Source: a virus
Lineage: Duplodnaviria > Caudoviricetes
Virus record (IMG/VR): IMGVR_UViG_3300034061_006011
DNA length: 64,000 bases
Direction: 5' to 3' (one strand)
Below, piece after piece: positions 12,825-29,552 of the stretch. Under the pieces are notes generated by a model. It did no database searches, was not told the origin of the DNA, and saw nothing but the letters and a program-made list of their open reading frames with translations. The position numbers and the translations under genes are program-made. Position 1 is the stretch's first letter. Each line of letters starts with the position of its first letter.

Positions 12825-13316
12825 ATGAATCTCTTTCTTGAAGTTTCTTTATCAGATCTTTATAACAGCACAGACACTCACTTTCCTGAAAAGATTGTTA
12901 GATCTACTTCAGTTGAAATCGGTGATATTACATTCAACTTTTTACCACCAAGTACACTTCTAATTAGATCTGATGCACACGGAGAAGGCGTTTATCCTCT
13001 CACAATTCTTTTAAATAATGTAAAAAAAGGCAGAACAACAATAGAAACTGTAACCGGACCTGTTAAAATAGCCAAAATTAATCCAAGAAATGGCAATGCA
13101 CAAGTCTTCTGTGGTTGTACCAACTTTGCCTATACATGCAATAGACAAAATGATGCCGTCAATTCACTGTACGATAGTTCCAGAAACTTGCGCCCACCAT
13201 ACATAAAAACCACAAATAGAGCCTTCCTTAATGAAGGCAATCATCCCGGTTTATGCAAACATTTAATTAAATTAGTTCAAGAATTAAAAAACATGGGAGT
13301 ATTAACAAAACTATGA
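12825..13316 (+). CDS. SWIM zinc-finger protein
   Basis: VFCGCTNF...LCKHL. Confidence 0.7.
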   Translation: MNLFLEVSLSDLYNSTDTHFPEKIVRSTSVEIGDITFNFLPPSTLLIRSDAHGEGVYPLTILLNNVKKGRTTIETVTGPVKIAKINPRNGNAQVFCGCTNFAYTCNRQNDAVNSLYDSSRNLRPPYIKTTNRAFLNEGNHPGLCKHLIKLVQELKNMGVLTKL

Positions 13317-13337
13317 TAAATGTAAACAAACCTTATC

Positions 13338-14435
13338 TTACAAATCTACTGAGACCATAGTGTTAAGTAAATCTTGTAGTTTATATTCAGCAATTTTAAC
13401 TACAGAATCATTGTCGCCATAACTTATTATAATTTTATCTTTTTTTCTTACCATTCCAATAGGGAATATACAAGCAATTTCATTTTGTTTTCTAAAAGGC
13501 GTTTCACATGCTGCATCTGCTGGCAAATAAGTTCTATTAGCACATTTTAAAACATTAAATGGAGGCTCACCAGAAAACAAATAAACTCCATTGTCATAGT
13601 GATGTTTGTGACTATGAATCATTGATGTATGAAAAGTGCCAAGATAATTACCATCATCTAATCTAACAGCATTAGTATTTCCTCTCAAATGAGCATCTAT
13701 CTTCCATGGAGATACCCAAGAACTTTCAAAAACTTTCTTGCATTTAAAGTTGTTATCTAATTCATAAATCCCATGAGGACAAACAGAGTTTATAATATAT
13801 ATTTTACCATTATGATCAAAAGGCATCCAATTTTTCTGCCTTGAATTCATATGAGCAGGACTTATTCTAAAAGATGTATCTTCAATAAATTTACCAGAAG
13901 ATCTGTTATCCATTATAACAGTTCCTCTCATGTATTCTGTTTCATACTTGTCGTTTTCAATATAAGAATAAATCATCAACAACTGATTATCTTTAGTCCA
14001 AATTAATCTTGGATCAGCACATTTGTTTATATTAAATTTATGATAAGACTTTTCAACCACCTTGTAATTTTTGTCTAATATACAACCGACAAACTTTAGT
14101 TCATTTGGGCGGTATACACAAACATAATGATCATCATCTAATTCGACTAAACCAGCATTGAATGAACCTTTTTCTGGGATATCAATCTTGATAAATTTTG
14201 CATTTACAGTTGTTAAAAAGTCTTTATCTGGTCTAGGTTTCTCAGGAACAATATTATTTTTATTTCTTCCACCAATAGATTTTACAATTTTTTGTCCACT
14301 GCCTAAAGAAGAAGAAGCTAGTAAATTATTTTTGATTCTACTAGCCATGTCTCCCTCATTTATTATTTTGTTTAAACTGTTAAGATTAATTACAGCAGCT
14401 CTTCTTCTTGATGCTACATCTTTTTTTTTGTCCAT
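13338..14435 (-). CDS. 5-bladed beta-propeller glycosidase-like protein (GH43/GH130 clan-like)
   Basis: FNAGL, CADPRL, QKNWMPF, LRGNT, FPIGM, ISYGDND. Confidence 0.7.
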   Translation of the reverse strand: MDKKKDVASRRRAAVINLNSLNKIINEGDMASRIKNNLLASSSLGSGQKIVKSIGGRNKNNIVPEKPRPDKDFLTTVNAKFIKIDIPEKGSFNAGLVELDDDHYVCVYRPNELKFVGCILDKNYKVVEKSYHKFNINKCADPRLIWTKDNQLLMIYSYIENDKYETEYMRGTVIMDNRSSGKFIEDTSFRISPAHMNSRQKNWMPFDHNGKIYIINSVCPHGIYELDNNFKCKKVFESSWVSPWKIDAHLRGNTNAVRLDDGNYLGTFHTSMIHSHKHHYDNGVYLFSGEPPFNVLKCANRTYLPADAACETPFRKQNEIACIFPIGMVRKKDKIIISYGDNDSVVKIAEYKLQDLLNTMVSVDL

Positions 14436-14532: not shown

Positions 14533-15348
14533 TTAATCCTCTATTACTTTTCCTCGACAATATTCCAATGATTTTTTTATTTCTTTTTCTATTTTGGTAA
14601 AAGCAATATTAACTGTTTTCTCAACAATATTTTCAGTATGGTTAATAGGAGAATTTTCATTACAAAACTTAGTCAATTTTTTGAAATCAGGACGTTTTAA
14701 TTTACCACCACCATATAAATAAGATACAAAAATTTCATATGCCAATTCGTCGGCATCTTGTACAGTTTTATTTTCCACAGTTGATTTTGCAGATGCAAAA
14801 TTAAACAATAAAGGCAATATTTTGTTTGGTTTAAATTCTACTGAAGGAAATTCATTGTTGTCATAGAATTTATTCACTGTTGTAAAAGGTATTTTGCCAA
14901 ATGTCAGATGTGTAACTAAATTGAAAACAGCCATCTTAATTGTATCTTTAGAAGACGAATTTCCCATTTCAAACACTGCATGACCCATATTGTGCAAAAT
15001 CATCCAAGGAGTTAGTAAATCTCCTTGTGATGATTTCTTAAGAAAAACTATATCCTCTTTTGGAATTTTATCAAAAAAGTATTTTTGAATATCTATGTCA
15101 TCTCTGTTATATTCACCAAAGTATATATGAAAATTAAAGCCTTTGACTCTTGCCAATACTGTGTCTAAAACAGATATTATGCCACCACGAAGCTTGCTAC
15201 GACTACTAATAACAAGCGGTCTTTTATACATGCCAGAAATATATTCAGTATCTTTTTCATTAAGAGATGGCTTAAATTCATCTCCATGTGGCATCGTAAA
15301 GCCACCATGACTCGATAAAGCTTCCAAAAATTGATAAAAACTTTTCAT
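14533..15348 (-). CDS. tagged protein (MKSFYQFLEA) with degenerate zincin motif; paralog of 26550-27713
   Basis: LTPWMILHNMGHAV...ELAYEIF. Confidence 0.65.
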   Translation of the reverse strand: MKSFYQFLEALSSHGGFTMPHGDEFKPSLNEKDTEYISGMYKRPLVISSRSKLRGGIISVLDTVLARVKGFNFHIYFGEYNRDDIDIQKYFFDKIPKEDIVFLKKSSQGDLLTPWMILHNMGHAVFEMGNSSSKDTIKMAVFNLVTHLTFGKIPFTTVNKFYDNNEFPSVEFKPNKILPLLFNFASAKSTVENKTVQDADELAYEIFVSYLYGGGKLKRPDFKKLTKFCNENSPINHTENIVEKTVNIAFTKIEKEIKKSLEYCRGKVIED

Positions 15349-15430
15349 TGTACCTATATAGAAAAACCCCGGCGAAATATTTTAACTTCTCTACTAGCAA
15401 TTTATTTAAAATTATCACTAAATATACACT

Positions 15431-15997
15431 ATGAATACTTTCAAACAATTTCTAGAATCTAGAAACGATGAACTAAGAAAAGCATTAGAAGACATTACAG
15501 CCAATTTCGCTAAATATGGATCGCCAGTTCCTCCACAACCAATCGATACAGATCCAGATCTCCTAAAATGGGAACCAGAACTATTAGAATTTAACCCAGA
15601 ATTAGTTAAATGGACTCACGAACTACTCCATAAACGCAAAGATCAAAACCAAACAGCAAAAGAATTTAAAAAATGGATCGAAATGAGAACCAGAGCTGAA
15701 ATGAGAACCAAAGCATCAGCACCACCTCCTCAACCAAAACCACCATTGCCACCAATAGAAGACTTTATCAAAGAATATAAGCCAAAAAGACATCCCGAAA
15801 AAGACTACGGAGGATATAACGATGGAATGAAATACACTGTAGTATCTACATCAAAATCTGTACCACATGAATTAAGACAACTAATAGCAAGATCACTAGG
15901 AGAAGAATGGTCATACCGTCAAGAAGTTGATAGAAAACCTTCAGATAACAAAAGAAGACACTATTACCTCGTTTATTGCCCAAGCCTAAGCTTGTAA
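15431..15997 (+). CDS. tagged Pro-rich hypothetical protein (MNTFKQFLES)
   Basis: CTAAATA upstream; tag motif. Confidence 0.65.
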   Translation: MNTFKQFLESRNDELRKALEDITANFAKYGSPVPPQPIDTDPDLLKWEPELLEFNPELVKWTHELLHKRKDQNQTAKEFKKWIEMRTRAEMRTKASAPPPQPKPPLPPIEDFIKEYKPKRHPEKDYGGYNDGMKYTVVSTSKSVPHELRQLIARSLGEEWSYRQEVDRKPSDNKRRHYYLVYCPSLSL

Positions 15998-16050
15998 AAT
16001 AAATTGACATAAATACTAATTTATAATATAAAAATAGAGGCAACTATGTC

Positions 16051-16551
16051 ATGATCGAAATCCCTATCACAAAAATCATGCTAGATTATGCAAACCACAA
16101 AGCATACCAACTCGGAAAATTAAAAAACTCAATAACAAAAGGCGAAGGTAATATCGCCGGATTCCTTGGCGAAATAGCAACAAAAATGTATCTAAACATA
16201 CCATATAACAAAGAAGAAAACTCTATACACTACGATATAATACACAACAACATAAGAATAGATGTTAAAACAAAAAGAACCACAACTACTATAAAACCAT
16301 ACTACGAAACCAGTATCGCCAACCTCAATACACTACAAGATTGTGACGATTATCTCTTTACAAGAGTGTATCAACCTACATATTCAAATATGCCAATATC
16401 AGTATTCCTGCTAGGTATCTACCCAAAAGACCTATACTTCGAAAAAGCTAGATTTCTATCCAAAGGAGATATTGACGGAGATAATAACTATATCGTAAAA
16501 AGCGACTGCTGGAATATGACTATTGATGAATTATACAATATTAACTACTAA
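16051..16551 (+). CDS. PD-(D/E)xK restriction-endonuclease-like protein
   Basis: GEIA...YDII...IDVKTK. Confidence 0.65.
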   Translation: MIEIPITKIMLDYANHKAYQLGKLKNSITKGEGNIAGFLGEIATKMYLNIPYNKEENSIHYDIIHNNIRIDVKTKRTTTTIKPYYETSIANLNTLQDCDDYLFTRVYQPTYSNMPISVFLLGIYPKDLYFEKARFLSKGDIDGDNNYIVKSDCWNMTIDELYNINY

Positions 16552-16613
16552 TCATCACACAAATCTTCATTAAAAATTCATCCCATTATGCCCCAAACTT
16601 CCATAAATATTAT

Positions 16614-16775
16614 ATGGAAGAAATTAATCATATAGTGAATCATATCACAACCATGAACCCAGCACTACCTAATTCTCAACAAGAATTAATTAGCACCCTG
16701 TCATTCATTGCTATCGTACCAGCAACCACCATGTTCATCCTCTACGCAATCTATGAAGAATATTTTCACTGCTAA
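16614..16775 (+). CDS. 53-aa small membrane protein, not in ORF track
   Basis: CATAAATA box 5 nt before ATG; C-terminal hydrophobic helix LSFIAIVPATTMFILYAIY. Confidence 0.5.
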   Translation: MEEINHIVNHITTMNPALPNSQQELISTLSFIAIVPATTMFILYAIYEEYFHC

Positions 16776-16787
16776 TCTAAATATACC

Positions 16788-17270
16788 ATGATCACCTTCA
16801 AACAATTTTTAGAAAATAAAGAAGACTTAGAACTACCACCAGAAATGGGAACCGCTCCAATACCAGATGGATGCGTAAGACTCTATCATCAAACAAATCC
16901 AGAAAATGTTCCATCAATTAAACAAAATGGCATAACTAAATCTTTGTCAACAGGAAAATCGCACCACGAACCATCTGTAATCTGGGCTGCAAGAAAACCA
17001 TTCTATAACATCAAATCAGACCTAGCTACTATCGAATTCTTCATCCCAGAAGAACAATTCTCACCACCAAGCTACGTCTTGGTAGACGTAATACCACCAG
17101 AACAAATTATAGGCATACACGAAAGATGGACCGACCTCGCAAGACACCTAATAAAAGATTACCCAGAACCAAATCAATCAAAAATAGACTTCTGGATGTC
17201 TATCGACGATAATTACAAAAAAGCTACCCAATTTTATGTCAACTATATGAAATCAATAGATAAATTGTAA
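16788..17270 (+). CDS. tagged ADP-ribosyltransferase-fold protein (MITFKQFLEN)
   Basis: LYHQT...SIKQNGI...IWAA pattern of ART/Tpt1-like NAD-binding domains. Confidence 0.6.
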   Translation: MITFKQFLENKEDLELPPEMGTAPIPDGCVRLYHQTNPENVPSIKQNGITKSLSTGKSHHEPSVIWAARKPFYNIKSDLATIEFFIPEEQFSPPSYVLVDVIPPEQIIGIHERWTDLARHLIKDYPEPNQSKIDFWMSIDDNYKKATQFYVNYMKSIDKL

Positions 17271-17289
17271 ATATTATCATAAATACAAC

Positions 17290-18603
17290 ATGACCACTTT
17301 CAAACAATGGCTGTTAACCGAAGCAATAATTGACAAAGAAGAATTTATTAAAGAAATTAATTCTACAGAACATTCTTATTTACACTTACAACTGTCCCCT
17401 AATGGAAAAATATTAATTACAAGCCCTCATATTGAAACCAATATAATAAAAATTGGGAAAAAATATAAGTCAATCGAAGCAACAGGATCATTACAACCAT
17501 TATCTAAAAATTTTGCTAATGTAATTAACACAATTAAAAAAATATATCCTGAAATATTAAACTATGTCGTTTCCGAGACAGGAGTTGCAGGATTTAGAAA
17601 TCCTTCAACAAAACATAGAACAGTACAATATTGGCTTGACCAACAAAGAACAGAACCAAAAGTAAATCTACCAAAATATTTTTATCACGGCACCTCTACA
17701 AACTTATATAATATGTTCATCAAAGAACAAGGATTGGTCCCAAGACAAATATCTGGAAGTTCTGGATCTTATGGTGCATCATCAGTCAGAGCCTTATCAA
17801 GAGGAATGTTTAATTATCTTACAATTCATCCTGATTATGCTACAAGAGAAGCAGCTACACAAGCAGCAAAAAATCATGGCGGTCTTCCACTCATATTAAA
17901 AATAAATTCATATGCAATAGATCCAACAAGACTTTTTCCCGATGAAGACGCAAGAGCAGAAACTTGGGAAGAATCCATGCACAAGATAGGAACAGTTGCC
18001 TATAAAGGCATTATCCAAAACTCAAGCATCATGCCATATGAAATTAGCAAAGATATCAATAGATTAAAATGGTTGCCTTATGAAGAAACACCAACAATGA
18101 ATCATCCCACATACGAAAAATTAATTACAACAAAAGAACATAGAAACAAAGATTCCGTATTCTTTGCACTTTATGATAAAGAAATAATTGATAGAAAAGG
18201 TAGCTTACTCAAACCAATAACCAGCGAAGAATTTAACGAAATAATAAAGAATGCAAAATGGGCAACTAATGCATGGTTAATTTGTGAATCAATAAACGAA
18301 GGTATATTGGAAAAGACAAGAAATTCTGTTATCAGCAGAAGTAATTTCGATAAAGAAGCACAAAAAATTGTACTTGATTTGTATAAGCATGATATTTTTG
18401 ATGAATATCTGCAAATGAAAAGCGAATACATTAGAATATATGATTACGCAATACAAGTAATAATAAAATATGCTAAATACCTTGGCAAAAATTCATGGAA
18501 AGAAATAGATCAAAAATTAAGAACTGTTTACTCAAGAAACAATAGAGATCAAAATGACCACTTATATTCCACTGAAGCTAAAGAAATATTAGGAATTAAA
18601 TAG
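17290..18603 (+). CDS. tagged ART-fold (Tpt1/KptA-like) protein (MTTFKQWLLTEA)
   Basis: FYHGTS...IKEQGLVPR...YLT...A..AA...GG.PLILKI. Confidence 0.7.
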   Translation: MTTFKQWLLTEAIIDKEEFIKEINSTEHSYLHLQLSPNGKILITSPHIETNIIKIGKKYKSIEATGSLQPLSKNFANVINTIKKIYPEILNYVVSETGVAGFRNPSTKHRTVQYWLDQQRTEPKVNLPKYFYHGTSTNLYNMFIKEQGLVPRQISGSSGSYGASSVRALSRGMFNYLTIHPDYATREAATQAAKNHGGLPLILKINSYAIDPTRLFPDEDARAETWEESMHKIGTVAYKGIIQNSSIMPYEISKDINRLKWLPYEETPTMNHPTYEKLITTKEHRNKDSVFFALYDKEIIDRKGSLLKPITSEEFNEIIKNAKWATNAWLICESINEGILEKTRNSVISRSNFDKEAQKIVLDLYKHDIFDEYLQMKSEYIRIYDYAIQVIIKYAKYLGKNSWKEIDQKLRTVYSRNNRDQNDHLYSTEAKEILGIK

Positions 18604-18715
18604 AAAGATTACCCGCAACTCCCGAAGAAGCAAGTATGTGGAAACTCAAAACTCTTAACCACCCATTCCATTTCAAATTCATTTCAGAAAATCCACAAGT
18701 AATCATAAATAATAC

Positions 18716-19867
18716 ATGACTAATTTTAAACAATGGCTACTTACAGAAGAAATTGACCGTAATGGCAAAACGGCAATAGTTTATCATAGAACCGACGAAA
18801 TTGAAAATGCACTTTCAATACTCCAATATGGATCTAAATCCGATTTTGATAAAGACCATCCTATGTTATCCGATTTTGATAAAGACAATCAACCGGGGCA
18901 GATGTTCTTCGTCTTTGATCTTGAAAGCACTATGGGAAAGGCAGAAACTTACGGAAATGCTATAATAAAATTCAAAGTCACTGATCTTGATAAATATCTT
19001 GTATTCCATACAAATATGGCTAAAAGAATTCATGGAGAGAATTACAAATTAAGTGATCAACTTAGAGAATTCAAAATTTCACAAAAATTCACACAAAATT
19101 ATCTTGATGATATAGACGAAAAACTAGTCACAAATCAATATAACCACATCACTGACGTTTATTCTTTTTTAATTGAAAACGAATGGATAAAAAGTAAAAT
19201 AAAAGGCGTTATTTATTGGGGATATGATGATGGATATTGCTTGCTTAAATTCCGTCCAGTAAATGACGGAACAATTACTATGATCGGATATGCAACCGAC
19301 CCACACAAAAATTATGAAAAAGATGGGATAATAAAAAGCAAAAATAGAATGAAAGATTTAGAAAAATCTCAAAATTGGACAACATCAACAGATATAGCCA
19401 AATTAAAATCTATTGATAAAACCCCATACGGACAAAGAGAAAAATATATTAAAATAAAAGAAAAAAATCCAACTGTCTTGGAAATAATCAAAAAACTAAA
19501 ACTAGAGAAAAATATTGAAAAAGATGAATTATTAAAAATAATGAATTCTGTTAAAAATAAAAACGCATTTGCAAAAATAATTATACAAAATAAAAAAGAA
19601 TTAACAGTTGATGATATTTCATTGTTAATGAAATATTCAACAGACTCATGGGAAATTTGTTCATTTATACTTAAGAATAGACCAGAATTGTCTGATTTTA
19701 TTTCTAGAGCTATGTTTCCTAAAACCTACAGACCAATGGACACTCAAACCAGCAAGGTATGGTCTGATTATACATCAGATCCAGACAGAAGACCAATAGA
19801 CACTAAAACCGGCGAAAGACCAGAATTGTCTGATTTTATTTCTAGAGCTATGCGTTCCCGTAAATAA
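18716..19867 (+). CDS. tagged PARP-like ART protein, paralog of 22638-23720 (MTNFKQWLLTEE)
   Basis: VYHRT; shares VTDLDKYLVFH.NMAK.IHG.NYK.SDQL with its paralog. Confidence 0.65.
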   Translation: MTNFKQWLLTEEIDRNGKTAIVYHRTDEIENALSILQYGSKSDFDKDHPMLSDFDKDNQPGQMFFVFDLESTMGKAETYGNAIIKFKVTDLDKYLVFHTNMAKRIHGENYKLSDQLREFKISQKFTQNYLDDIDEKLVTNQYNHITDVYSFLIENEWIKSKIKGVIYWGYDDGYCLLKFRPVNDGTITMIGYATDPHKNYEKDGIIKSKNRMKDLEKSQNWTTSTDIAKLKSIDKTPYGQREKYIKIKEKNPTVLEIIKKLKLEKNIEKDELLKIMNSVKNKNAFAKIIIQNKKELTVDDISLLMKYSTDSWEICSFILKNRPELSDFISRAMFPKTYRPMDTQTSKVWSDYTSDPDRRPIDTKTGERPELSDFISRAMRSRK

Positions 19868-19910
19868 AATTTATTTAACAATTAATTAAATATACACCAA
19901 TAAATACAAC

Positions 19911-20561
19911 ATGATCAACTTTTATCAATTCCTTGAATTTGCTAGAGAAATCATCCCAATAGGTACTGTTACTGACCCAAATGTCAGAAAATCGCTGGCA
20001 GGAAGAAGAATTAATTCCGCTGATGCGAAAAAATATTTGGATCAAGGTTTCGTTTATGTCTATAGATTTGAAGGATTCGCACCACGTCTCAGGAAGTATT
20101 CAAGAGGAGTTTGGTATTTTATAGGAGATGAAAATGATACTAAACTTGATCTGGGCAAATGCTTATTAGCATGGAATAAAGTACATGCACTTCACCTATT
20201 AGGATTTCCCAACAATTATATATTGTTTTATATTAATCCTGCAAATTTTTTACGACTTGCTGCTGACCAAAATTTAAACAATAGATATATAAATCAAGTA
20301 ATAAAATCACACTTTAATGAAAATGGACCTACCAAAGATTTCAATTCTTATGATAAATTAGATTTTCCCATGACTGGTATCGCAAAAAGTCAGGGATATG
20401 ATACTATCATGTTAGTTGCAGAAGGTGATTCCAAATCAGCAGAATTAATCGATCTTAGAACAGAAGTAACTCCTAAATCATTAGAAGATTATTTAAAAGA
20501 AATAGATGTAGATGAAGTTATGAAAGATTTAAAGAAAAAAAAGGGGAAAAAATCTACATGA
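19911..20561 (+). CDS. tagged protein, possible ART fold (MINFYQFLEF)
   Basis: VYVYRF start strand and GYDTI...E-LI end typical of ART-like domains; weak. Confidence 0.45.
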   Translation: MINFYQFLEFAREIIPIGTVTDPNVRKSLAGRRINSADAKKYLDQGFVYVYRFEGFAPRLRKYSRGVWYFIGDENDTKLDLGKCLLAWNKVHALHLLGFPNNYILFYINPANFLRLAADQNLNNRYINQVIKSHFNENGPTKDFNSYDKLDFPMTGIAKSQGYDTIMLVAEGDSKSAELIDLRTEVTPKSLEDYLKEIDVDEVMKDLKKKKGKKST

Positions 20562-20617
20562 TCACTTTCAAATAATCACCGTAACAACTCCAGTTAATTC
20601 TAATAAAATTAATATAA

Positions 20618-21301
20618 TTATTCTGAATCTGAGGAATAAGTGCCTATACCATAGTACTCTTTAATCTTATCAATCGCATCATTGTAAAGAATTGTTGCAT
20701 AAGAAGGACGAATATTCAATTCTGCCGCAATATCTTTATTCATTACATCCTCAGACCTGCGAGTCAAAATAATCTTCTGCCTTGGACTCAAATTGGGAAC
20801 CCTTAACAAATCCTCTAATCCCATCTTTTCAGACGATGGATCATCAGCAAATGAACTAGGCTCATGAATAGTACCAACTGTGTTAAAACTCACATTTCCT
20901 TTCTCACTCTTCCAATTATTACGCCTTATAATGTCCACAACAGATGCTCTAATCATGTTTGTAATCAAACCACCAATTAAATTGTAATTCAATTTTCTAT
21001 TTCTTATTTTTTTTTCAACCGTATTGTGAACCCTCAGCAAAGTCCTGTTGATAATGTCCTCTTCATCAACAATGTTTCTTATAACCATTCTACGCTGATA
21101 AGGCAAAAGACTATTCCTAAAACAATTTCTTATATTATTGTCCAATCTATCATAAAACTTTTCCTTCTTACCCAAATTATCAGAATACCATAAAAATAAA
21201 TTCTCCAAATTCCTCTTACACTTAAAAATTATCTCGGCTGCTTCTGGATCTACAGATTCATGAAAATCTCTATTAATAACATATTCAAAAAATGTTTTCA
21301 T
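20618..21301 (-). CDS. tagged ECF-like sigma factor (MKTFFEYV...HES)
   Basis: region-2-like EDIINRTLLRV...IRASVVDIIRR; region-4 HTH LSPRQKIIL...KDIAAELNI. Confidence 0.7.
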   Translation of the reverse strand: MKTFFEYVINRDFHESVDPEAAEIIFKCKRNLENLFLWYSDNLGKKEKFYDRLDNNIRNCFRNSLLPYQRRMVIRNIVDEEDIINRTLLRVHNTVEKKIRNRKLNYNLIGGLITNMIRASVVDIIRRNNWKSEKGNVSFNTVGTIHEPSSFADDPSSEKMGLEDLLRVPNLSPRQKIILTRRSEDVMNKDIAAELNIRPSYATILYNDAIDKIKEYYGIGTYSSDSE

Positions 21302-21381
21302 AATAAACTATATATTCCACTAAACAAAAAAATCACACCACATCTCTATAAATTAAATCCACAAATAAGCATAAATACTAC

Positions 21382-21762
21382 ATGATCACTTTCAAACAAT
21401 TCCTAGAATCCTACAGAATGGAAGACCAAACCTTCTCCGATAACAACGGCACCTACTCCGTACCACAAATAGTCAACTACGCAACAGAAAACAAAACAAT
21501 AAAAGAAATGCCATTAGAACCCCTACTACATAACCTAGAACCATCCCCACACGAAGAAGGTGATGAACTACCCGGTCATCCAGAATTTATCAAAAGAACT
21601 GAACTAACTGACCTCAAATACCCAATCATTATCGTCAAATACCCAGACGGTCTCTTTATCGCTGACGGTGTCCATAGACTAGCAAAAGCTCACTCCCTAA
21701 ACCAACAAACTATCAAAGCTTATGTCCTAGACCAAAATGAATTAGAACAATTCAAAATGTAA
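21382..21762 (+). CDS. tagged ParB/Sulfiredoxin-like domain protein (MITFKQFLES)
   Basis: YPIIIV...IADGVHRLAKA. Confidence 0.7.
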   Translation: MITFKQFLESYRMEDQTFSDNNGTYSVPQIVNYATENKTIKEMPLEPLLHNLEPSPHEEGDELPGHPEFIKRTELTDLKYPIIIVKYPDGLFIADGVHRLAKAHSLNQQTIKAYVLDQNELEQFKM

Positions 21763-21768
21763 CATTCT

Positions 21769-22563
21769 TCAAGACTCAATCCAATCCTGTCCATTATGAA
21801 CTAAAATTTTAGTCACAGGTAAAGAACTTTCTCCTGTGTACTTCAAAGCCATAGGATTCTTTCCATAATTATTCTGGAAAAACCAAGATTCCAGTTTTTT
21901 ATGCAATTCTGGATTCCGATCCTGATGTCCATAATAAAAAGGAGCTATATTAGATGCTGCTCCTGCACTGTAATAAGGGTTATCATTCAACAAAGGATCA
22001 CGAACACTTCCTATTCTACCGGGAAATTTACCATACAAACTTCTGGCTACAGGATTCTTCTTGATAGTCGAAAATGGAATTGGCTCGGCATCAATACCAG
22101 TCAACTTTTCTCCAACTTCATCCTTTGACAAATATTCTTTTGTCTTGTCTGTTAAATTAACATCTCCCAACTTGTTCAGCTTTCCAACTCTTTTAGAAGC
22201 ATAAGTAAGAATGTCCTTCGCATGATTCTCAATGTCCAAATCCCATTCACCAAAATCAATATTTGGAACATCTATTACAACAACTATAGGATTACCCTCT
22301 AAAGAACCCTTCAAACCATACAATTCTCTGTTCATACGAGCCAAAGCATGAGTTTTTGCGCTTTCATCCGATGTCCAAAGAAATAAACCACCTCCCTGAC
22401 CATGACCGTATCCCGAAGACCTAGCACCATCCCTCTTAAATGAATTCAATACCTCATCGTTCTTTCCAGAACTAGTTCCATGATAAAACCTGAAAGGACC
22501 ATTAATAACAATATCATGTGAATAACCTTCATCATGTCGAAGCCACTCTTTGAAATTATCCAT
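21769..22563 (-). CDS. tagged ART-fold protein (MDNFKEWL...DE)
   Basis: FYHGTS...GHGQGGGLFLWT. Confidence 0.65.
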   Translation of the reverse strand: MDNFKEWLRHDEGYSHDIVINGPFRFYHGTSSGKNDEVLNSFKRDGARSSGYGHGQGGGLFLWTSDESAKTHALARMNRELYGLKGSLEGNPIVVVIDVPNIDFGEWDLDIENHAKDILTYASKRVGKLNKLGDVNLTDKTKEYLSKDEVGEKLTGIDAEPIPFSTIKKNPVARSLYGKFPGRIGSVRDPLLNDNPYYSAGAASNIAPFYYGHQDRNPELHKKLESWFFQNNYGKNPMALKYTGESSLPVTKILVHNGQDWIES

Positions 22564-22637
22564 AATGTTTATATATAAAAAATCCAGAAAAATATCAACC
22601 CTCTACACAAATTAAATCAACATACATAAATATAACC

Positions 22638-23720
22638 ATGAACTTTAAACAATGGCTCATCAACGAAGAAATTTATCCCAATAACACCGCTACGGTTTAT
22701 CATAGGACTGAACACGCTAGCAATATTGAAAGAATTCTACAATCTGGATACAAAACCGGTGGTGGTCAAATGTATGGTAATGGTCTTTACACTACCATCT
22801 CACTAGAAAGCCAATTTAAAAGTTATATGAGCATATATGGTAATTATGTTATCAAGTTTCATGTCACCGATCTTGATAAATATCTTGTATTCCACCCCAA
22901 TATGGCTAAAAAAATTCATGGTCAAAATTACAAAATCAGTGATCAATTGAAAAATTTTAATTTAGCAGGAAGCTTTACAGAAGATAAACTTAGACAATAC
23001 GATGAAGCACAAGAAAAAACCGGAACTGTTAATGGTAATAATGCAGTTAAATTTTGTAGAGAAAATATTGGGATACTGCATACAATAAAAGGCATTATTT
23101 ATTATGGAACAAATGATGGCTATTGTTTAGTAAAATATAAACCAGTGAACGATAATACAATAAAAATGCTTGGTTACGCAGAAGCACAAGTTGAAGATAT
23201 CAATAAAATGAACGAACTGTACGCAAATAAAGGATGGAATACATCAACAGATAAAGCTAACATCAAAGATATACAAGATTTAGAACCAGATCAAAGAGAA
23301 AAATACGCAACAATTACTCCAAATAATTTGAAATCTGTATCAGAAATTGTAACCCTTATAAAGGATGAAAAATCTAATTTTGAAGAAATATTCGAATACA
23401 TAAAGAGAAATAAATTAATAGATCAAAAATACAAAAATACTATTGTAAGACTTATATTAAAATATAAAAAAGAAATATCCGTGGAACAATTGCTAGAACT
23501 AGTAAAATACAAAAAAGAAATCTCCATAGAAGAATTAATTGAACTAATAAATTACAAAAAAGAAATCTCCATTAAACAATTACTAGAACTAATGAAATAT
23601 ACAAACATGTCCACATCAGAAAGAGAAAAATTTATTGCAACTTACTTACCAGAAAAAGTAAATTCAATTAAACAATATGTTAACGATCCATCAAACTTTA
23701 CTTCAACACATGATGATTAA
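22638..23720 (+). CDS. tagged PARP-like ADP-ribosyltransferase (MNFKQWLINEE)
   Basis: VYHRT...ILQSGY...MYGNGLYTT; three 14-aa C-terminal repeats KYKKEIS.E.L.EL. Confidence 0.7.
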   Translation: MNFKQWLINEEIYPNNTATVYHRTEHASNIERILQSGYKTGGGQMYGNGLYTTISLESQFKSYMSIYGNYVIKFHVTDLDKYLVFHPNMAKKIHGQNYKISDQLKNFNLAGSFTEDKLRQYDEAQEKTGTVNGNNAVKFCRENIGILHTIKGIIYYGTNDGYCLVKYKPVNDNTIKMLGYAEAQVEDINKMNELYANKGWNTSTDKANIKDIQDLEPDQREKYATITPNNLKSVSEIVTLIKDEKSNFEEIFEYIKRNKLIDQKYKNTIVRLILKYKKEISVEQLLELVKYKKEISIEELIELINYKKEISIKQLLELMKYTNMSTSEREKFIATYLPEKVNSIKQYVNDPSNFTSTHDD

Positions 23721-23766
23721 TATCAACCCTCTACACAAATTAAATCAACATACATAAATACACATC

Positions 23767-24048
23767 ATGAAACTTAAAGATAAAGCTACCATCAAAACAA
23801 ATTTTCCAGAAGCTGACTTTTGGATCGTTCGCAGAGGATCAGAATCAGACGTTGGTAAACCTACCAAAAAATTTAGCGAATATCACATAGGAATTAAAGT
23901 TACATCTGATGACCTATTACCAGATTATCTCTACTACGCAATGACATATCTCTACAACCAAGGATACTATAAACCATTAGCCACAGGAATGTCAAGCTTG
24001 GTAAACATACAAGTTAAAGATGTTAAAAATATTAAAATGGGCGAATAA
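23767..24048 (+). CDS. small protein resembling a type I R-M HsdS target-recognition fragment
   Basis: ADFWIVRRGS..VGKP...IGIKV...LPDYLYY...G...NI pattern; recognised from memory. Confidence 0.55.
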   Translation: MKLKDKATIKTNFPEADFWIVRRGSESDVGKPTKKFSEYHIGIKVTSDDLLPDYLYYAMTYLYNQGYYKPLATGMSSLVNIQVKDVKNIKMGE

Positions 24049-24099
24049 TAAAACCACACTACCTCTACACAAATTAAATCAACATACATAAATATAACC

Positions 24100-24693
24100 A
24101 TGAACTTTAAAGAATTTATTTATAATGAAACATCAACAGCTAGCCTAGACCTCGTTGGCTATAACTGCCGTCAAATAGAACCAGACACAGATCCACACTT
24201 CGGTCAAGTACATGTCTCTGGTCCCAGCGAAGAAGACATGAGTGCTGAAGTATTCGTCAAAAGATATATCGAAAATATCATAGAAGAAAAGGACTACTAC
24301 GAATTCATAAAAGAATATGGAGACGATCCATATGAGAAAAATCAATCACTCACAACAGAACGCCAACAATGGATGGTAAAAGCTGCCAATTTTCTTAACA
24401 AAAAAGGATACAGAATGCTATTCTGCGGCGATAAACCAGAAAAAATCTATGGAGAAAATTGCTACGCAGTCTATATCGATAAAACAAAAATTATTAATAT
24501 CACACGTCGTGACTATTACCCAATGACAGACGAAATAGACGAAATCACAGAAGAAACTATCATCACTTGGAAAATACCATACAACCCAATCCTCGTAAAT
24601 ATCAAAACATTACCAACAAAATTACCAAAACCAATTCCACTCATCAGACCAAGAAGACGATCAGATCGAAATGGAGATCACGAATTCCTATAA
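24100..24693 (+). CDS. tagged hypothetical protein (MNFKEFIYNE)
   Basis: late cassette upstream, tag motif. Confidence 0.65.
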   Translation: MNFKEFIYNETSTASLDLVGYNCRQIEPDTDPHFGQVHVSGPSEEDMSAEVFVKRYIENIIEEKDYYEFIKEYGDDPYEKNQSLTTERQQWMVKAANFLNKKGYRMLFCGDKPEKIYGENCYAVYIDKTKIINITRRDYYPMTDEIDEITEETIITWKIPYNPILVNIKTLPTKLPKPIPLIRPRRRSDRNGDHEFL

Positions 24694-24773
24694 CCCAATA
24701 CCAGAAATATTACACACCACTTCTACACAAATTAAATCAACATACATAAATACACCTGAGCAAATCATAACAC

Positions 24774-25682
24774 CTAATAAATCCGTTCTCCTCTGACGGA
24801 CTCACTCGTCCTCTGCTTCCATTGGTCCCTTAAAACATCTCTTCGCATCATAGCTGCCTTGGAAAACGGCTCAACAGCCAAATGTGCAGCCGGAAGGTCA
24901 AATGCCTGCTGCGGCGTTTCTCCCACCAATAAGTCCTTCACAGTCATAGTTGTTACTGATTTCCCACCCTTATCAAATGTATTTACAAAAATAGTTGTAT
25001 TCATAGTAGCAGGCTGATACAGGAGAGCTTCATCATCACTAGTTGACCTGACACGCTGATTCTTGGCACAAATAGCCTTAAGGCAATTTATCAATTTCTC
25101 CTTGTCATACGAATACATGTCGAAATTGTTGGCACCCCTCACAAGTATCATACCAGCATCCTTCATCGCCTCTACTTCAAGCTGCTCTTCTCCATGACCC
25201 ATAGCTATCTTCTGCAAAATTGATGAAGCCGATCCCAAAGCCTCATCCAACCCTTTAGCCATTATTTGCTCAATATAATTTTCACATTCTTTATCATTAT
25301 TATACACATCAGAGGATATCATGTCGCTAATTACCGAATACATCAAACCAAAATTTTCATGATTGATGTATGTCTTATCGGAAGGAGGAAAAAAGAAACC
25401 GGAAGAATGAACATGACCACGCCTGACATCTCTCTCTTCTCTCTCAAGCTTTTCCTTGTTAACACAAGGATTGTTCCTAAAATTAGTATAAAAATCAAAT
25501 AAAGCTTTTTTGTATTTCGTGACATAATATTGCGATATTAAATCTGTATGTCCTCTGGATCTGTCAGATCTTATGGCATTCTGCAACTTACCATTTGGAT
25601 AATATATCCATTCGCCCTTGATGCAGGACTCTCCTTCACTCTCATTTTCTCTCATCAAAACCCAATCCATAAAACGAATCAT
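24774..25682 (-). CDS. tagged hypothetical protein (MIRFMDWVLMRENE)
   Basis: 302-aa ORF, GGAG RBS. Confidence 0.65.
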   Translation of the reverse strand: MIRFMDWVLMRENESEGESCIKGEWIYYPNGKLQNAIRSDRSRGHTDLISQYYVTKYKKALFDFYTNFRNNPCVNKEKLEREERDVRRGHVHSSGFFFPPSDKTYINHENFGLMYSVISDMISSDVYNNDKECENYIEQIMAKGLDEALGSASSILQKIAMGHGEEQLEVEAMKDAGMILVRGANNFDMYSYDKEKLINCLKAICAKNQRVRSTSDDEALLYQPATMNTTIFVNTFDKGGKSVTTMTVKDLLVGETPQQAFDLPAAHLAVEPFSKAAMMRRDVLRDQWKQRTSESVRGERIY

Positions 25683-25731
25683 ATAATCTCCAATATTTAA
25701 TTACCCATGTATATTTATTCCAAATAATTAA

Positions 25732-25941
25732 AAACCTCACCCAATAGAACAACTAAAAGCCAAAAGAATTAAAATAACCATCAACCCCGGAGATTGGGTC
25801 TGCCTCACAAGAAATTATGCAAAAGAACACGGAGAAGGAAGCCTGAATAACGTATTCAAAATAATATCCAAAACAGTACCAGCTAAACACCTATTCACTA
25901 ACGGTGACATGCTACAAGAATTCGGTTACGACCCTTCTTAA
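25732..25941 (+). pseudogene. 5'-truncated remnant of an ART-like domain
   Basis: 69 open codons with no start: ...INPGDWVCLTRNYAKEHGE...KTVPAKHLFTNGDMLQEFGYDPS*. Confidence 0.65.
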
Positions 25942-25948
25942 TACACAT

Positions 25949-26545
25949 TTATACCGCACGAATATTTTGTAAAAATTTCTTCTTTTCCAAAGGACTCGAC
26001 TCCATTGTCAAATTCTCTGGAATAGATGGATAACCCTTCGGAACATATTCCCTTTCATATATATCTCTCCTCATCCATTGATTTATTTTTACCGAAACAT
26101 ATGAAGGAAATAAACCCTTGATGGCAAAAATATCATACGCATCTCTGCGACCTTCAGGATTCGTTATTATTCCAGTAACAGGATTGGCAGTTTTTGTTTT
26201 TGACGGACTCCATATCAGATAATCAGGATTATTATTTTTGATAAACTCACCAATTGCATAAAAAACAGCACCAATCACCTTAATACCAACTCCACGCCTC
26301 TCATCCTTAGAATTGTTACTTCCCCTTTTAAACTCAACTTCATAACTATTCGATTTCAACTCCTCAAACCAGACCAAATAACACCACTTGGGACTACAAT
26401 CATCACCCTCAACATCGAAGTAAAACAAATCATTGCGACTCCACTCCGAATGCTTCGGCTTACCTCCATCAGTTCCCACAATAGTCATCTCGCTTAACCA
26501 CAAATAATCATCTGTTCGGTCCAAATATTCAAAAAATGTTTTCAT
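25949..26545 (-). CDS. tagged hypothetical protein (MKTFFEYLDR)
   Basis: start moved to 26545; 25 bp around the start identical to the sigma gene at 21301. Confidence 0.65.
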   Translation of the reverse strand: MKTFFEYLDRTDDYLWLSEMTIVGTDGGKPKHSEWSRNDLFYFDVEGDDCSPKWCYLVWFEELKSNSYEVEFKRGSNNSKDERRGVGIKVIGAVFYAIGEFIKNNNPDYLIWSPSKTKTANPVTGIITNPEGRRDAYDIFAIKGLFPSYVSVKINQWMRRDIYEREYVPKGYPSIPENLTMESSPLEKKKFLQNIRAV

Positions 26546-26549
26546 AATA

Positions 26550-27713
26550 TCAACTGCCCCTTCTATCCATAATAACTTCACCCCTGCAACCATCTATAAT
26601 TGAATGGTAAGAGGCTGCAATTTCATTAAATCTACTGTCCAAACCATCTAGCAAACTATCAAAATTTTCCGGTTCCCTACCTGCAAATAATTTTTGCAAC
26701 TTTACTTTGTAATTAGGATCAACTATCGGCAACCTTCCTCCTTGAGTTAACCAAAATACAAATATCTCCATTTGTAACTCCCCAGAATTTAAAGCCTGTT
26801 GTAAATCCATTTTCGATTTTATAAATTGACCCGATCTGGCTCCAGATATTATCTTAAACGCTTCCTTTATACTCCAAATACTAGGAAACAAAATTGTTAG
26901 AAAATCTATAGTTATATTCCCTATTCTTTTTTGTATTTCTTCATCAGTATACAAAGCTTCTTTATTACCATCTTTCAACACATCAATCCAACCTTGATAA
27001 AACTGTGGATACATCGGACTAACCAAAAAGTCTTTCAAAAGTTCCTTAACTAAATTTTCAGCTCTAACACAATCCTCCTGAATTTTATTCATGTATGTGT
27101 TGCCATAATCTGCTGTACGAGCAAGTGACCCTCTATCAAAAATACCATGTGCAAATGTGTGAAGAATCAACCAAGGAGTCAAAGGATCAGCAGCAGTACT
27201 CGTCTTCATGTAAACAATATCATTCTCACTTATGTTCATTCCGTCACGACCATAAAAATAATTTTTTAATTGATTGTAGTTGTCTTTAGTTAACTCTTTA
27301 CTTATGGTAAATCCTGACTTAATATCATCTTTAGGATAACCAAAATAGAAATGTATGTTCACAATACCAAGCTTCTCTAACTTCTTTTCAAGACCAGACA
27401 TTATCAATTTAAAATTTCTAGGATTCTCTATAATTTTCTTGTCACCACCTTTAAAATTGTGATCCCAACCAGAACTACCATATCGACTACCAACATCATC
27501 AGAATCAATATCCTTGTCTGGAAAATGCTTTTTATACTCATCACCATAATTTGAACCAAATTGAGAAGACCAACCATAATCATTAGACGGCGGCTGATTT
27601 TGCAAACCCTGTGAAAGATTATGCTGAACCGGATAACCTCCAACTGACCCTAAAACTTCATCAATTGTAAATTTATTGTCATTAATCAAAAACCACTCTT
27701 TAAATCTTTTCAT
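26550..27713 (-). CDS. tagged protein with degenerate zincin motif (MKRFKEWFL)
   Basis: PLTPWLILHTFAHGI...ELQMEIF. Confidence 0.65.
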   Translation of the reverse strand: MKRFKEWFLINDNKFTIDEVLGSVGGYPVQHNLSQGLQNQPPSNDYGWSSQFGSNYGDEYKKHFPDKDIDSDDVGSRYGSSGWDHNFKGGDKKIIENPRNFKLIMSGLEKKLEKLGIVNIHFYFGYPKDDIKSGFTISKELTKDNYNQLKNYFYGRDGMNISENDIVYMKTSTAADPLTPWLILHTFAHGIFDRGSLARTADYGNTYMNKIQEDCVRAENLVKELLKDFLVSPMYPQFYQGWIDVLKDGNKEALYTDEEIQKRIGNITIDFLTILFPSIWSIKEAFKIISGARSGQFIKSKMDLQQALNSGELQMEIFVFWLTQGGRLPIVDPNYKVKLQKLFAGREPENFDSLLDGLDSRFNEIAASYHSIIDGCRGEVIMDRRGS

Positions 27714-27851
27714 AATACATATCTATCCCACAAAAACAAAAACCCTACCACCCCCAAAAAAATACCCCGGCGCATTTTTTTAAACCCCATACCTTCATAT
27801 ATTTTTAACCTATTACCACATATACACAATACCATGTCACAACATTTCTGT

Positions 27852-27975
27852 AAAATGAAATAAAATTATTCCAGATTTTTAGAAAATGAAATAAAATTAT
27901 TCCAGATTTTTAGAAAATGAAATAAAATTATTCCAAAATTTTAGAAAATGAAATAAAATTATTCCAAAATTTTTT
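27852..27975. repeat. 4 x 31-bp AT-rich tandem repeat
   Basis: AAAATGAAATAAAATTATTCCA(G/A)A(T/A)TTTTAG. Confidence 0.95.
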
Positions 27976-28156
27976 AAATAAATCAAGATGAACAACAAAA
28001 GGGAGCCATGATGGCGGGGGGATACCCCCCTACCCCACTCTCTTTTGGGGAATGTCAAGTGCAATTATGTTATGGCAACTTTGTAACATAATTAAAAAAC
28101 CCCTATAAAACAAGTGCGGCGCAATTGTGTTATCACGCCGCCTGCCTATTCTGTTA

Positions 28157-28339
28157 TCACCTTACCCACTTCATAGTTATGTTAGCCTGAACCTTTGGCT
28201 TATCCCCCTCCCATTCAGTATTGATATTCACTTCTGTTATCTGCCTTGTCGGCTTGCGGTCATGGTGTTGAACGTGTTGGCAACCTACCGACAACACCAC
28301 AACCAATAACATAATTAACCTTACCATGGTCATCATCCT
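28157..28339 (-). CDS. small putative lipoprotein
   Basis: hydrophobic signal ending in LSVG-C lipobox; start approximate. Confidence 0.55.
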   Translation of the reverse strand, partial: RMMTMVRLIMLLVVVLSVGCQHVQHHDRKPTRQITEVNINTEWEGDKPKVQANITMKWVR

Positions 28340-28524
28340 TGAATGCCGATTGATCCCCACACTACTATTATCGGCATTCAACCAACCAGACTTGAACCAA
28401 CCTAAAGATTCTTCCTAACCACATTTTAGTATCCTAAGTTTGTCCGCATTGTCTCAATTGAAATAACAATAAAAAAACCCCCTTCTCCGGGTGGAGAAGG
28501 GGGCTGTTGATTATTGTTAGCCTA

Positions 28525-29190
28525 TCATTCAGATAACAGAATCATTTCTAATTCCCCCCCACGGATTCCCATTGAAGGGAATCCCTTGGCTGAATAAATT
28601 CTTTCGATTGCGTCTTCGGACGTTAGCCCGAAGACGTTTTGCAATTGTTGGAACAGGCACTTCAAATGGCGATCCAGTGCCAACTTTGTTATCACAATAA
28701 CAAAGTTTTCAATGGTGCCGTTAACACGGCACGCCGTCCCAGTGGGACGGTTGATTTCAAAATTAACCGTCCCAAGACGGTTCACATCCCACTTATAACG
28801 CCCACTGGCGGATTGATCCGCCGGTGTTGGTAGTGGGTGTTGACAATTACAATAAGTATCCTGATCCGCATTGAAATAGTCCGCCCAATCAATGGGCGTT
28901 CCAATGCACGCCCAAAGATGCCCAAACGAATGGGCGATTTTACGGGACACCCGCAATTGTGCGGGTGTCATTTTTGAAGTCTCAAAACTGAATTCATCGG
29001 GATACCGAAGTGGCTCGCCACTCCAGTGGCGTGAACAGTCTCGCTTGCCCCGTAGGGCAAGCGATGCGATTTCAGCGGCATTGGGTGCCGCAGCGTTCTT
29101 CCTGATCCAGTGGTTGAGATACGCAACACGACCGGTTGCGGTTGCGGTTGCGGTTGCGGTTGCGGTGGCGGTGGCGGTTGAAATGGTCAT
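28525..29190 (-). CDS. hypothetical protein with N-terminal (TA)n microsatellite
   Basis: start moved to 29190; 8 x CGGT(T/G)G at 29133-29180. Confidence 0.7.
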   Translation of the reverse strand: MTISTATATATATATATATGRVAYLNHWIRKNAAAPNAAEIASLALRGKRDCSRHWSGEPLRYPDEFSFETSKMTPAQLRVSRKIAHSFGHLWACIGTPIDWADYFNADQDTYCNCQHPLPTPADQSASGRYKWDVNRLGTVNFEINRPTGTACRVNGTIENFVIVITKLALDRHLKCLFQQLQNVFGLTSEDAIERIYSAKGFPSMGIRGGELEMILLSE

Positions 29191-29552
29191 GTTCGATACT
29201 CTCATGCCCGTTTCAGGTACGGGTGGACCTTGGCTAAGGTGAACCACAACATGCGGTTCACCTACGACTATCTTAACATCATCCCCAACTAGGTCAAGAG
29301 AAAATCCACCCAAGAGAAAAGATTCCTCCCATCCACATTTTAGTATCCTAGTGTTGTCTCAATTGTCCAGCAATAGGATTCCTCCCATCCACATTTTAGT
29401 ATCCTAGTGTTGTCCACATTGTCCAGCAATAGGATTCCTCCCATCCACATTTTAGTATCCTAGTGTTGTCTCAATTGTATCAATTCAGATAACAATAAAA
29501 AAACCCCCTTGACTTGTCTGTCAAGGGGGTGGTTGATTAAGTTAGCCGATTG

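Follow-up and report, generated by a model that had tools for sequence, protein, structure and literature searches.

The sequence analysed here is a stretch of 64,000 nucleotides (nt) from the virus record IMGVR_UViG_3300034061_006011 (Caudoviricetes) of IMG/VR, which is referred to as the window. Between positions 14533 and 27713 it carries a block of genes whose products share a short N-terminal peptide, the tag, which resembles the capsid targeting sequence (CTS) of the internal proteins (IPs) of phage T4. In this block, 14 of the 16 open reading frames (ORFs) of at least 90 amino acids (aa) start with M-x(1,2)-F-x-[QED]-[FWY]-[LIVF], and all 14 that had been named in the initial annotation exist as described there.

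The left part of the block contains the tagged genes 14533-15348 (-; 271 aa, MKSFYQFLE/A, the slash marking the putative cut), whose product has invariant HxxxH and ExxxE motifs, 15431-15997 (+; 188 aa, MNTFKQFLE), to which no function could be assigned, and 16788-17270 (+; 160 aa, MITFKQFLE), whose promoter and tag belong to repeat family D1. These are followed by 17290-18603 (+; 437 aa, MTTFKQWLLTE), which matches phrog_13493 and gave weak ADP-ribosyltransferase (ART) leads, 18716-19867 (+; 383 aa, MTNFKQWLLTEE) and 19911-20561 (+; 216 aa, MINFYQFLE); 17290 and 18716 both have CATAAATA 4 nt before the ATG. Further to the right lie a sigma factor-like gene at 20618-21301 (-; 227 aa, MKTFFEYV...FHE/S), a ParB-like gene at 21382-21762 (+; 126 aa, MITFKQFLE) and the genes 21769-22563 (-; 264 aa, MDNFKEWL), 22638-23720 (+; 360 aa, MNFKQWLINEE), 24100-24693 (+; 197 aa, MNFKEFIYNE) and 24774-25682 (-; 302 aa, MIRFMDWVLMRE). 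The block ends with 25949-26545 (-; MKTFFEYLD...LSE), which has 198 aa when read from the internal ATG at 26545 of the ORF 25949-26593, and with 26550-27713 (-; 387 aa, MKRFKEWFL...IDE/V), a paralogue of 14533-15348 with a longer leader. Untagged ORFs in the block are 16051-16551 (+; 166 aa), without a family match, 16614-16775 (53 aa) and 23767-24048 (+; 93 aa).

Outside the block, where about six more tags had been claimed, all six were present, at 2685, 9593, 53411, 53880, 57385 and 58830. They belong to a small ORF at 2685-2909 (+; 74 aa, MFSFKEFLNLQE), a NUDIX hydrolase at 9168-9593 (-; 141 aa, MKSFQDFLKG; Pfam NUDIX, E = 4.5e-18) and ORFs at 53411-53758 (+; 115 aa, MKSFEEYVILRE), 53880-54584 (+; 234 aa, MTSFNEWLKQRDE), 57385-58815 (+; 476 aa, MKNFYDFYKLLSE) and 58830-59162 (+; 110 aa, MKNFYEWLEE), the last of which matches Pfam DUF6321 (E = 1.7e-6, 29 bits versus a cut-off of 28.5). 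The tag of 57385 was graded as weaker, because Tyr stands at the position that is aliphatic in the other tags. Related contigs have similar-sized tagged ORFs at the place of 2685, upstream of the terminase gene, and tagged ORFs of 129-142 aa at the place of the NUDIX gene, downstream of the terminase.

With the strict pattern M-x(1,2)-F-x-[QED]-[FWY]-[LIV], 18 of the 105 non-overlapping ORFs of the window are tagged where 0.1 would be expected, and two looser cases bring the number to 20. When all ATG-initiated ORFs of at least 60 aa were considered, the strict motif was found at the N-terminus of 18 out of 147, and shuffling the residues of the same proteins gave 0.05 (maximum 2 in 500), so that the motif is indeed far more frequent than in shuffled controls. 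A six-frame count resulted in 19 motifs versus 0.99 in shuffled DNA. Inside proteins the motif core occurs only four times in 20,283 residues; the enrichment is about 180-fold and confined to the N-terminus. Based on the shuffle counts and the rarity of internal cores, it is concluded that the tag is genuine and N-terminal and that its frequency far exceeds chance.

The Glu that had been reported to follow the tag closely is found at position 9-19 in 19 of the 20 tags, the exception being the NUDIX protein, and in 15 of the 20 it is the end of a [LIVFM]-x-E site. When 59 tags from three genomes were combined, Phe occupied the first aromatic position in 58 and Trp, Phe or Tyr the second in all 59. 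As these aromatic positions belong to the regular expression, the real test is the enrichment together with the register with T4. A Glu lies within 13 residues in 56 of the 59 tags, mostly with the first Glu 2 or 5 residues past the second aromatic, and 43 of these 56 have a hydrophobic residue at P3.

The T4 leaders, taken from NC_000866, read MKTYQEFIAE/A for IPII and IPIII and MKTFKEF...ITE/A for IPI. The tags of the window are in register with them, with aromatic residues at positions 4 and 7, an aliphatic residue at position 8 and Glu at 9-19. In T4 IPIII the first 10 residues are enough for encapsidation; residues 4 and 7 are the main determinants of targeting, and residues 8 and 10 determine processing (reviewed in PMC9026906). 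The T4 IPs are diverse and have the CTS as their sole common part (PMC3012670), and the CTS has been suggested as a general T4-like route for loading varied proteins (PMC9026906). One regular expression was applied to the greedy ORF sets of five sequences. In T4 it captured 3 of 236 ORFs, which are exactly IPI, IPII and IPIII, and in Flavobacterium phage immuto (34.5% GC, S77 peptidase present) none of 208. Next to the 18 of 105 in the window, 16 of 212 ORFs were tagged in the related contig G001 (181 kb; 24 with a looser pattern) and 25 of 948 in LR756511.1 (595 kb). For T4, the window, G001 and LR756511.1, shuffling led to an expectation of 0.1-0.8 tagged ORFs. The resemblance to the T4 IP N-terminus that the initial annotation had pointed out is therefore borne out by the register and by a pattern that recovers only the three IPs of T4.

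The tags and the T4 CTS thus have in common a short N-terminal peptide of 10-19 residues in the same register, a cut after Glu (predicted for the tags), unrelated carriers and the presence of gp17, gp20, gp21 and gp23 homologues, and one regular expression captures both sets. They differ in number, with 18-20 tagged genes in 64 kb here versus three in the whole of T4, and in cargo, which here is not limited to small basic proteins but includes large enzyme-like ones of up to 476 aa (1076 aa in a relative). In addition, Phe rather than Tyr is found at position 4 and Trp is common at position 7, and in many of the genes a TATAAATA-like box stands right next to the ATG, without a Shine-Dalgarno site, in contrast to the ordinary leaders of the T4 ip genes.

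The window encodes a T4-type large terminase at 6606-8372 (+; Pfam Terminase_6N and 6C), which is 27.5% identical to T4 gp17 and, by its sequence, places the window in a lineage of large phages related to T4. A ParB protein, a DUF932 protein (39569-40414) and an AAA+ ATPase are also encoded. Terminases 49-83% identical were found on 42 IMG/VR contigs, the longest of which has 181 kb and is 38% complete by CheckV. The nearest GenBank terminase is that of the 595-kb uncultured phage LR756511.1 (46% identity), and the nearest isolate is Flavobacterium phage immuto (31%). A megablast search of the block against GenBank phages gave no match, and at least 15 contigs of independent freshwater assemblies contain exact copies of the block.

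The contig k141_72430 (94.6 kb) from ENA is 100% identical to positions 1-11213 of the window and 99.99% identical to 12638-33720. Within the 10 kb to the left of the window it encodes a T4-type portal protein (Portal_T4, E = 2.5e-73), a 592-aa ORF, a Peptidase_S77 protein (E = 6.6e-26, 91 bits versus a cut-off of 27), a scaffold-like ORF and a gp23-type major capsid protein (Gp23, E = 7.9e-87). The search for a gp21-like protease elsewhere in the genome, which the initial annotation had suggested, thus led to an S77 peptidase beside the portal and gp23 genes on the window's own contig. This protease is 30% identical to T4 gp21 and has kept the GEL(N/D)HP and G(V/I)SSRG motifs, which we take to hold the catalytic His and Ser of the prohead protease. 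S77 is encoded on all five large related contigs and in LR756511.1, and G001 and LR756511.1 have the gp17, gp20, gp21 and gp23 homologues in T4 order. In the capsid protein, F-N-E/V (I-N-E/T in G001) aligns near the LTE/A of T4 gp23, just before the Pfam Gp23 domain; T4 gp23 is cleaved after residue 65. A small tagged ORF lies between the portal and protease genes in both k141_72430 and G001. A complex prediction for the S77 protease and the first 40 residues of a tagged protein of the same contig had a score of 0.00, which is no evidence either way. The portal gene of k141_72430 is interrupted by an intein (L117:12906-15419, about 1.7-4.2 kb left of the window; Intein_splicing, E = 2.4e-13, residues 120-336), and its Portal_T4 domain starts at residue 349.

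Between the terminase region and the head module, at 8-1213 (-), lies the AAA+ ATPase (Pfam AAA, E = 3.5e-12), which has a hydrophobic N-terminal segment and no match to BCS1_N in Pfam. For BCS1-like AAA+ proteins of jumbo phages, a role in the transport of folded proteins into heads has been proposed (PMC7824862). A membrane-anchored AAA+ ATPase encoded here would also suit a different reading, in which the tag serves another machine as address or recognition peptide (an AAA+ unfoldase or chaperone, a leader-modifying enzyme or the import into an intracellular compartment) and the T4 likeness is convergent; that phage immuto has S77 and no tags points in the same direction. This is regarded as quite unlikely, because the tags match the T4 leader residue for residue at functionally mapped positions with a pattern specific for the T4 IPs, because [LIF]-x-E follows most tags and recurs at the propeptide boundary of the capsid protein, and because a tagged ORF is located inside the head module itself. 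Furthermore, no Radical_SAM gene was found in LR756511.1, in spite of its 25 tags, or in G001-G003.

When the tags were stripped, BLASTP related only 14533 to 26550 and 18716 to 22638, and a hidden Markov model of the 22638 family found 18716 (E = 1.7e-74) and no other tagged ORF. The tagged proteins had been described as unrelated to each other, which holds for most of them but not for these two paralogue pairs; judged by such comparisons, the cargo appears mostly unrelated. Pfam and PHROGs leave most of the cargo proteins without annotation. Whole families retain the tag at 35-60% identity, and orthologues swap tag variants before a fixed E/A junction. In AlphaFold models of two families, the leader had a predicted local distance difference test (pLDDT) score below 50 (residues 1-10 and 1-28), and the NUDIX domain of 9168-9593 begins at residue 14, past the tag. 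As modelled, the tag lies outside the folded domains.

In the 22638 family, 77 of 78 homologues have the tag directly before TATVYHRT, in four of them behind a 16-residue extension that probably reflects an upstream start call. The AlphaFold2 model of 22638-23720 (pLDDT 84, residues 1-10 below 50) consists of an N-terminal domain (residues 15-197) and a C-terminal helical repeat. By VIA, the N-terminal domain matched MbcT (Z 8.3, 138 residues aligned), ParT (Z 6.7) and cholix (Z 6.1). Foldseek matches in the PDB had E values of at least 0.05 and were nearly all ARTs, and in the AlphaFold database PARP and ART-PolyVal clusters were found at E = 1e-3 to 2e-2. These structure matches agree with each other and are each modest. 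No ART match was obtained from Pfam or PHROGs for 22638-23720 or 39 homologues, the Pfam matches being only of the repeat type in the C-terminal part. H22, R23 and Y67 are invariant in the family and Y51, E57 and D160 nearly so. From these models, 22638-23720 and its paralogue 18716-19867 resemble an ART-fold pair. The C-terminal helical domain of 22638-23720 contains three in-frame 45-nt units (KKEIS..LLEL.., at 23455-23589), and 18716-19867 contains an exact in-frame duplication of 36 nt, RPELSDFISRAM, at 19679 and 19817 (region 19679-19852).

The sigma-like protein 20618-21301 matched phrog_1740 (RNA polymerase sigma factor, E = 1.4e-7) and, below the cut-off, Pfam GerE, and it has no pairwise similarity to the sigma-like gene 55003-55557. 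In its family 14 of 19 homologues are tagged; the five untagged ones start beyond the tag and seem to be fragments or to reflect alternative start calls. The ParB-like protein 21382-21762 matched phrog_17560 (E = 4e-12) and the ParB-like phrog_33277 (E = 5e-5). For 21769-22563, the ART-PolyVal/AcrIF11-ART lead is confined to an embedding score of 0.88-0.90; no profile match reached significance. In the 14533 family, 31 of 36 homologues are tagged; the remaining five are shorter or have their start beyond the tag. The orthologues carry tag variants such as MKSFYQFLE, MNFKMWLE and MKTFRQFVE, always followed by ALSSHGGF. Compared with 14533, the paralogue 26550-27713 has 10 additional residues that separate the tag core from the E/[AV]L junction, a spacer reminiscent of the leaders of T4 IPIII (10 residues) and IPI (19 residues). 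Weak zincin-like hints (Z about 4) were obtained for the fold of the 14533 family. Its reading as a metallopeptidase was not retained, as it has weak leads only and no fold match at Z of 5 or above.

These cargo proteins bear on the possibility that the tag does target the prohead, and that the tagged proteins are scaffold or core accessories or internal head proteins which are degraded or inert and not injected. T4 core proteins are also substrates of gp21 (PMC9026906), one tagged ORF is located within the head module, and several tagged ORFs are small and lack a recognisable enzyme domain. However, many of the cargo proteins are large, folded and enzyme-like (ART fold, NUDIX, sigma-like, ParB-like) and would be sensible only in the cytoplasm of the host. 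The predicted cut site precedes the fold, and therefore the domain would survive cleavage. In T4, moreover, the IPs and Alt are ejected (PMC3012670, PMC9026906). Cargo that stays behind or is destroyed is regarded as unlikely.

The tagged genes also share expression signals. A TATAAATA-like box is found at -18 to -3 of the ATG in 10 of 18 tagged versus 2 of 87 untagged genes of the window (Fisher p = 8.5e-8), and in G001 before 10 of 23 tagged versus 12 of 189 untagged genes (p = 8.7e-6). Shine-Dalgarno sites are rarer before tagged than before untagged genes. The strict form YATAAATA with a gap of 4-6 nt precedes five strictly tagged genes, the weaker 57385 (gap of 6 nt) and one untagged gene of the window. 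Thus, the claim that most tags follow a TAAATA-type box holds in a loose sense, but the strict box stands before only five strictly tagged genes. In G001, several untagged genes also have YATAAATA upstream, at a distance of 15-28 nt and with an intervening Shine-Dalgarno site; PHROGs gave no structural annotation for these genes. If the box acts as a -10 element, the tagged mRNAs would be leaderless, for which the chances are considered about even. A sigma-70 scan of the block yielded 59 sites compared to 68 in shuffles, and a canonical promoter before 16051 was rejected because its spacer is too short.

Promoter and tag recur as DNA repeats. A promoter-like core of 31 nt is present four times, at 22602, 23730, 24064 and 24722. 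In the first copy (22602-22644, +; D3, D4) CATAAATA forms the end of the core, separated by 5 nt from the ATG of 22638; the second (23730-23772; D4) precedes the untagged 23767, and the third (24064-24106, +; D4) precedes 24100. The fourth (24722-24764, +; D4) is 91% identical to the reference copy and has no ATG or ORF behind it, so that it appears as an 'empty slot'. The 49 nt upstream of 24100 plus ATGAACTTTAAA are identical to those of 22638, and the identity extends into the tag codons. Six more promoter-plus-tag copies are 62-79% alike. Across the start codons, 25 nt of the sigma-like gene (21281-21305) are identical to 26525-26549 of the gene 25949-26545. At 20557-20574, overlapping the end of 19911-20561, the sequence ATGATCACTTTCAAATAA reads ATG ATC ACT TTC AAA TAA (MITFK-stop) and is, over 48 nt, 75% identical to the promoter-plus-tag region of 21382 (D6). 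This tag remnant is probably the relic of a lost cargo gene. The shared 5' repeats, the empty slot and the remnant fit an exchange of cargo by recombination at shared 5' ends. Near-identical contigs differ in their cargo: in one (L062), a 172-aa ORF precedes the 216-aa gene in place of the 383-aa gene found elsewhere, and in another (L061) the ORF at 21382 has 114 aa compared with 126 aa in the window. These differences suggest that cassette turnover is ongoing within one phage population.

With promoter and first codons recurring as DNA repeats, up to 50 nt identical before unrelated genes, with an empty slot and a tag remnant, and with a box 4-6 nt from the ATG and no Shine-Dalgarno site, the shared N-terminus might have no sorting function at all, but travel with the promoter and start cassette and be kept because it suits the translation of leaderless mRNAs. 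The tag codons argue strongly against this. The invariant Phe is encoded by TTT and TTC in a ratio of 15:5, compared with 160:46 in the bodies of the same genes, so that codon use at conserved residues equals bulk usage; at the aliphatic position all six Leu codons occur, as well as Val and Ile; and the second aromatic position varies among Phe, Trp and Tyr, which is an equivalence at the level of the protein and not of the nucleotides. Tags also persist behind other promoters and Shine-Dalgarno sites, including AAGGAG before 53411 and 53880, which share an upstream element that differs from the repeats of the block, and the untagged 23767 uses the same cassette. In T4, the same peptide is found behind the ordinary Shine-Dalgarno leaders of the IP genes. 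Based on codon usage, the interchange of aromatic residues and the differing expression signals, it is concluded that selection on the tag acts at the protein level, and an origin of the tag as a mere by-product of the cassette is considered very improbable.

Combining these results, the shared N-terminus is best explained, with a probability of roughly 70%, as a T4-type CTS and prohead-protease propeptide that has been greatly expanded. Every computational prediction of this reading that was run (register, pattern, protease, protein-level selection and a position outside the folded domains) came out as expected. In the mechanism that we propose, a newly made protein would bind through its first 8 residues (M-x-x-F-x-[EQD]-[WFY]-[LIV]) to the scaffolding core while the prohead is being assembled, the main determinants being the two aromatics, which are three positions apart. 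The gp21-type serine protease would then cut after the following Glu ([LIF]-x-E, residue 9-19) and free the mature protein inside the head, from which it would leave with the DNA at infection. Recombination at a portable cassette, which combines a TATAAATA-like box with the tag codons, would bring in new cargo genes. About 20 tagged proteins would probably be packaged in this way, a far larger enzyme kit than that of T4, and they are likely to be injected.

Several points weigh against this explanation. The tag of the NUDIX protein (9168-9593) has no Glu to be cut at, and none is present in its first 30 residues. The presence of S77 does not imply the tag, because phage immuto has S77 and no tagged ORF. 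To our knowledge, the binding partner of the CTS is not known even in T4, and we know of no precedent for a packaged sigma factor. Co-occurrence of the tags with late promoters had been expected; the box is enriched before tagged genes, but the head genes in G001 have no ATG-adjacent box, so that co-expression with head assembly is unsupported. Searches by tblastn with the T4 ORFs gave no gp55 or gp33 homologue. Given these two negatives, a late timing of the tagged genes is only a possibility. Core binding, cleavage, residence in the virion, ejection and effector roles are all inferred from sequence.

The initial annotation had also seen in this arsenal the best candidate for a new system in the window. 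The tag set is real, but it would represent an expanded T4 mechanism rather than a new kind of system. Probably, it is the T4 CTS-gp21 system in a distant large-phage lineage, about 15-fold denser, extended to large enzymes and coupled to a promoter cassette that abuts the ATG. Full-text literature searches gave no publication that connects CTS tags with huge, jumbo or mega phages, and tags are not mentioned in the moraphage paper on aquatic T4-core jumbo phages of Bacteroidota (PMC12619734). T4 Alt is an ART-fold substrate of gp21 which is delivered with the DNA (PMC9026906, PMC7824862), and the products of at least two of the tagged genes here are predicted to be ART-like; they have no detectable sequence similarity to Alt, however, and their predicted folds are nearest to ART-PolyVal, PARP and MbcT. 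Polyvalent proteins, which occur in phages and conjugative elements, have been proposed to be injected with phage DNA (PMC7824862). Their domain repertoire (ART-PolyVal, MPTase-PolyVal, ParB-like) and proposed delivery with the DNA overlap with what is seen here, but in polyvalent proteins the domains are fused in one giant protein, whereas here the genes are separate and each is tagged. The best-supported cargo fold, as modelled, would be one of those of the polyvalent proteins (ART-PolyVal); the embedding score of 21769-22563 and the ParB-like match are weaker leads toward the same repertoire.

Giant phages of the phiKZ type such as SPN3US likewise have a large protein payload in the head that is matured by a prohead protease. 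The lineage described here differs from these in being T4-like and not phiKZ-like. We know of no shared short N-terminal tag in phiKZ-like ejection proteins. Cassette variation at T-even ip loci and mobile promoter cassettes (PeSL) of T4-type phages have reportedly been described, in work by Repoila in 1994 and by Arbiol in 2010. Regulatory repeats flank exchangeable accessory genes both there and here, but here the repeat extends into the tag codons, with the box immediately next to the ATG.

Other features of the window lie outside the tagged genes. A ferritin-like protein is encoded beside the terminase at 6072-6539 (-) and a Methyltransf_24 protein beside the NUDIX gene at 9709-10353 (-), both identified with Pfam on an identical contig. 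The cluster 10341-14435 gave a glycosyltransferase 2 match just under the Pfam cut-off (22.2 versus 23.3 bits) and a GH130 match. Directly after the block, from 27800 to 33000, the GC content rises from about 33% to 44-45%, the coding density falls and the sequence is rich in repeats. Five tandem units of 31 nt occupy 27813-27998, a conserved core of about 45 nt (...CCACATTTTAGTATCCTAAAGTTGTCTCAATTGT) is scattered in nine copies over 28389-32860, and clusters of a GATAACG-containing unit are found at 30562-30670 and 31606-31768; the stretch ends at the ParB gene 32984-34084. An origin, a partition site and an array of promoters are possible identities of this stretch. At 40672-49075 (-), small paralogous ORFs occur in runs, among them MATSPY... 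at 40672 and 41004, MT..ND.SLT.TMT... at 42786 and 43763, and two to three MSQQMVCWQTQRSKFMPR... ORFs at 47967, 48313 and 48785. No tRNA or Rfam match was found in the window.

Should the tag function as it does in T4, a pattern of ten residues would predict from the sequence alone which proteins of uncultivated large phages are carried in the head and probably delivered. It would point to enzymes for first-minute takeover and anti-defence among genes that are now without annotation, and the CTS-gp21 pairing would be ancient and scalable from three to dozens of cargo proteins. A packaged sigma factor would represent a novel mode of transcription initiation in phages. For the diversification of the arsenal, the apparently leaderless promoter-tag cassette offers a concrete model, and the tags might help to load foreign proteins into capsids. 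Tentatively, and as a possibility that falls well short of probable, the lineage may have turned the T4 CTS into a plug-and-play loading system, in which a leaderless promoter plus tag cassette makes cargo of any captured gene and dozens of proteins are injected per genome, including a sigma factor that reprograms the host RNA polymerase and NAD-directed enzymes. In that case, the 'ejectome' of uncultivated phages would be readable directly from sequence.

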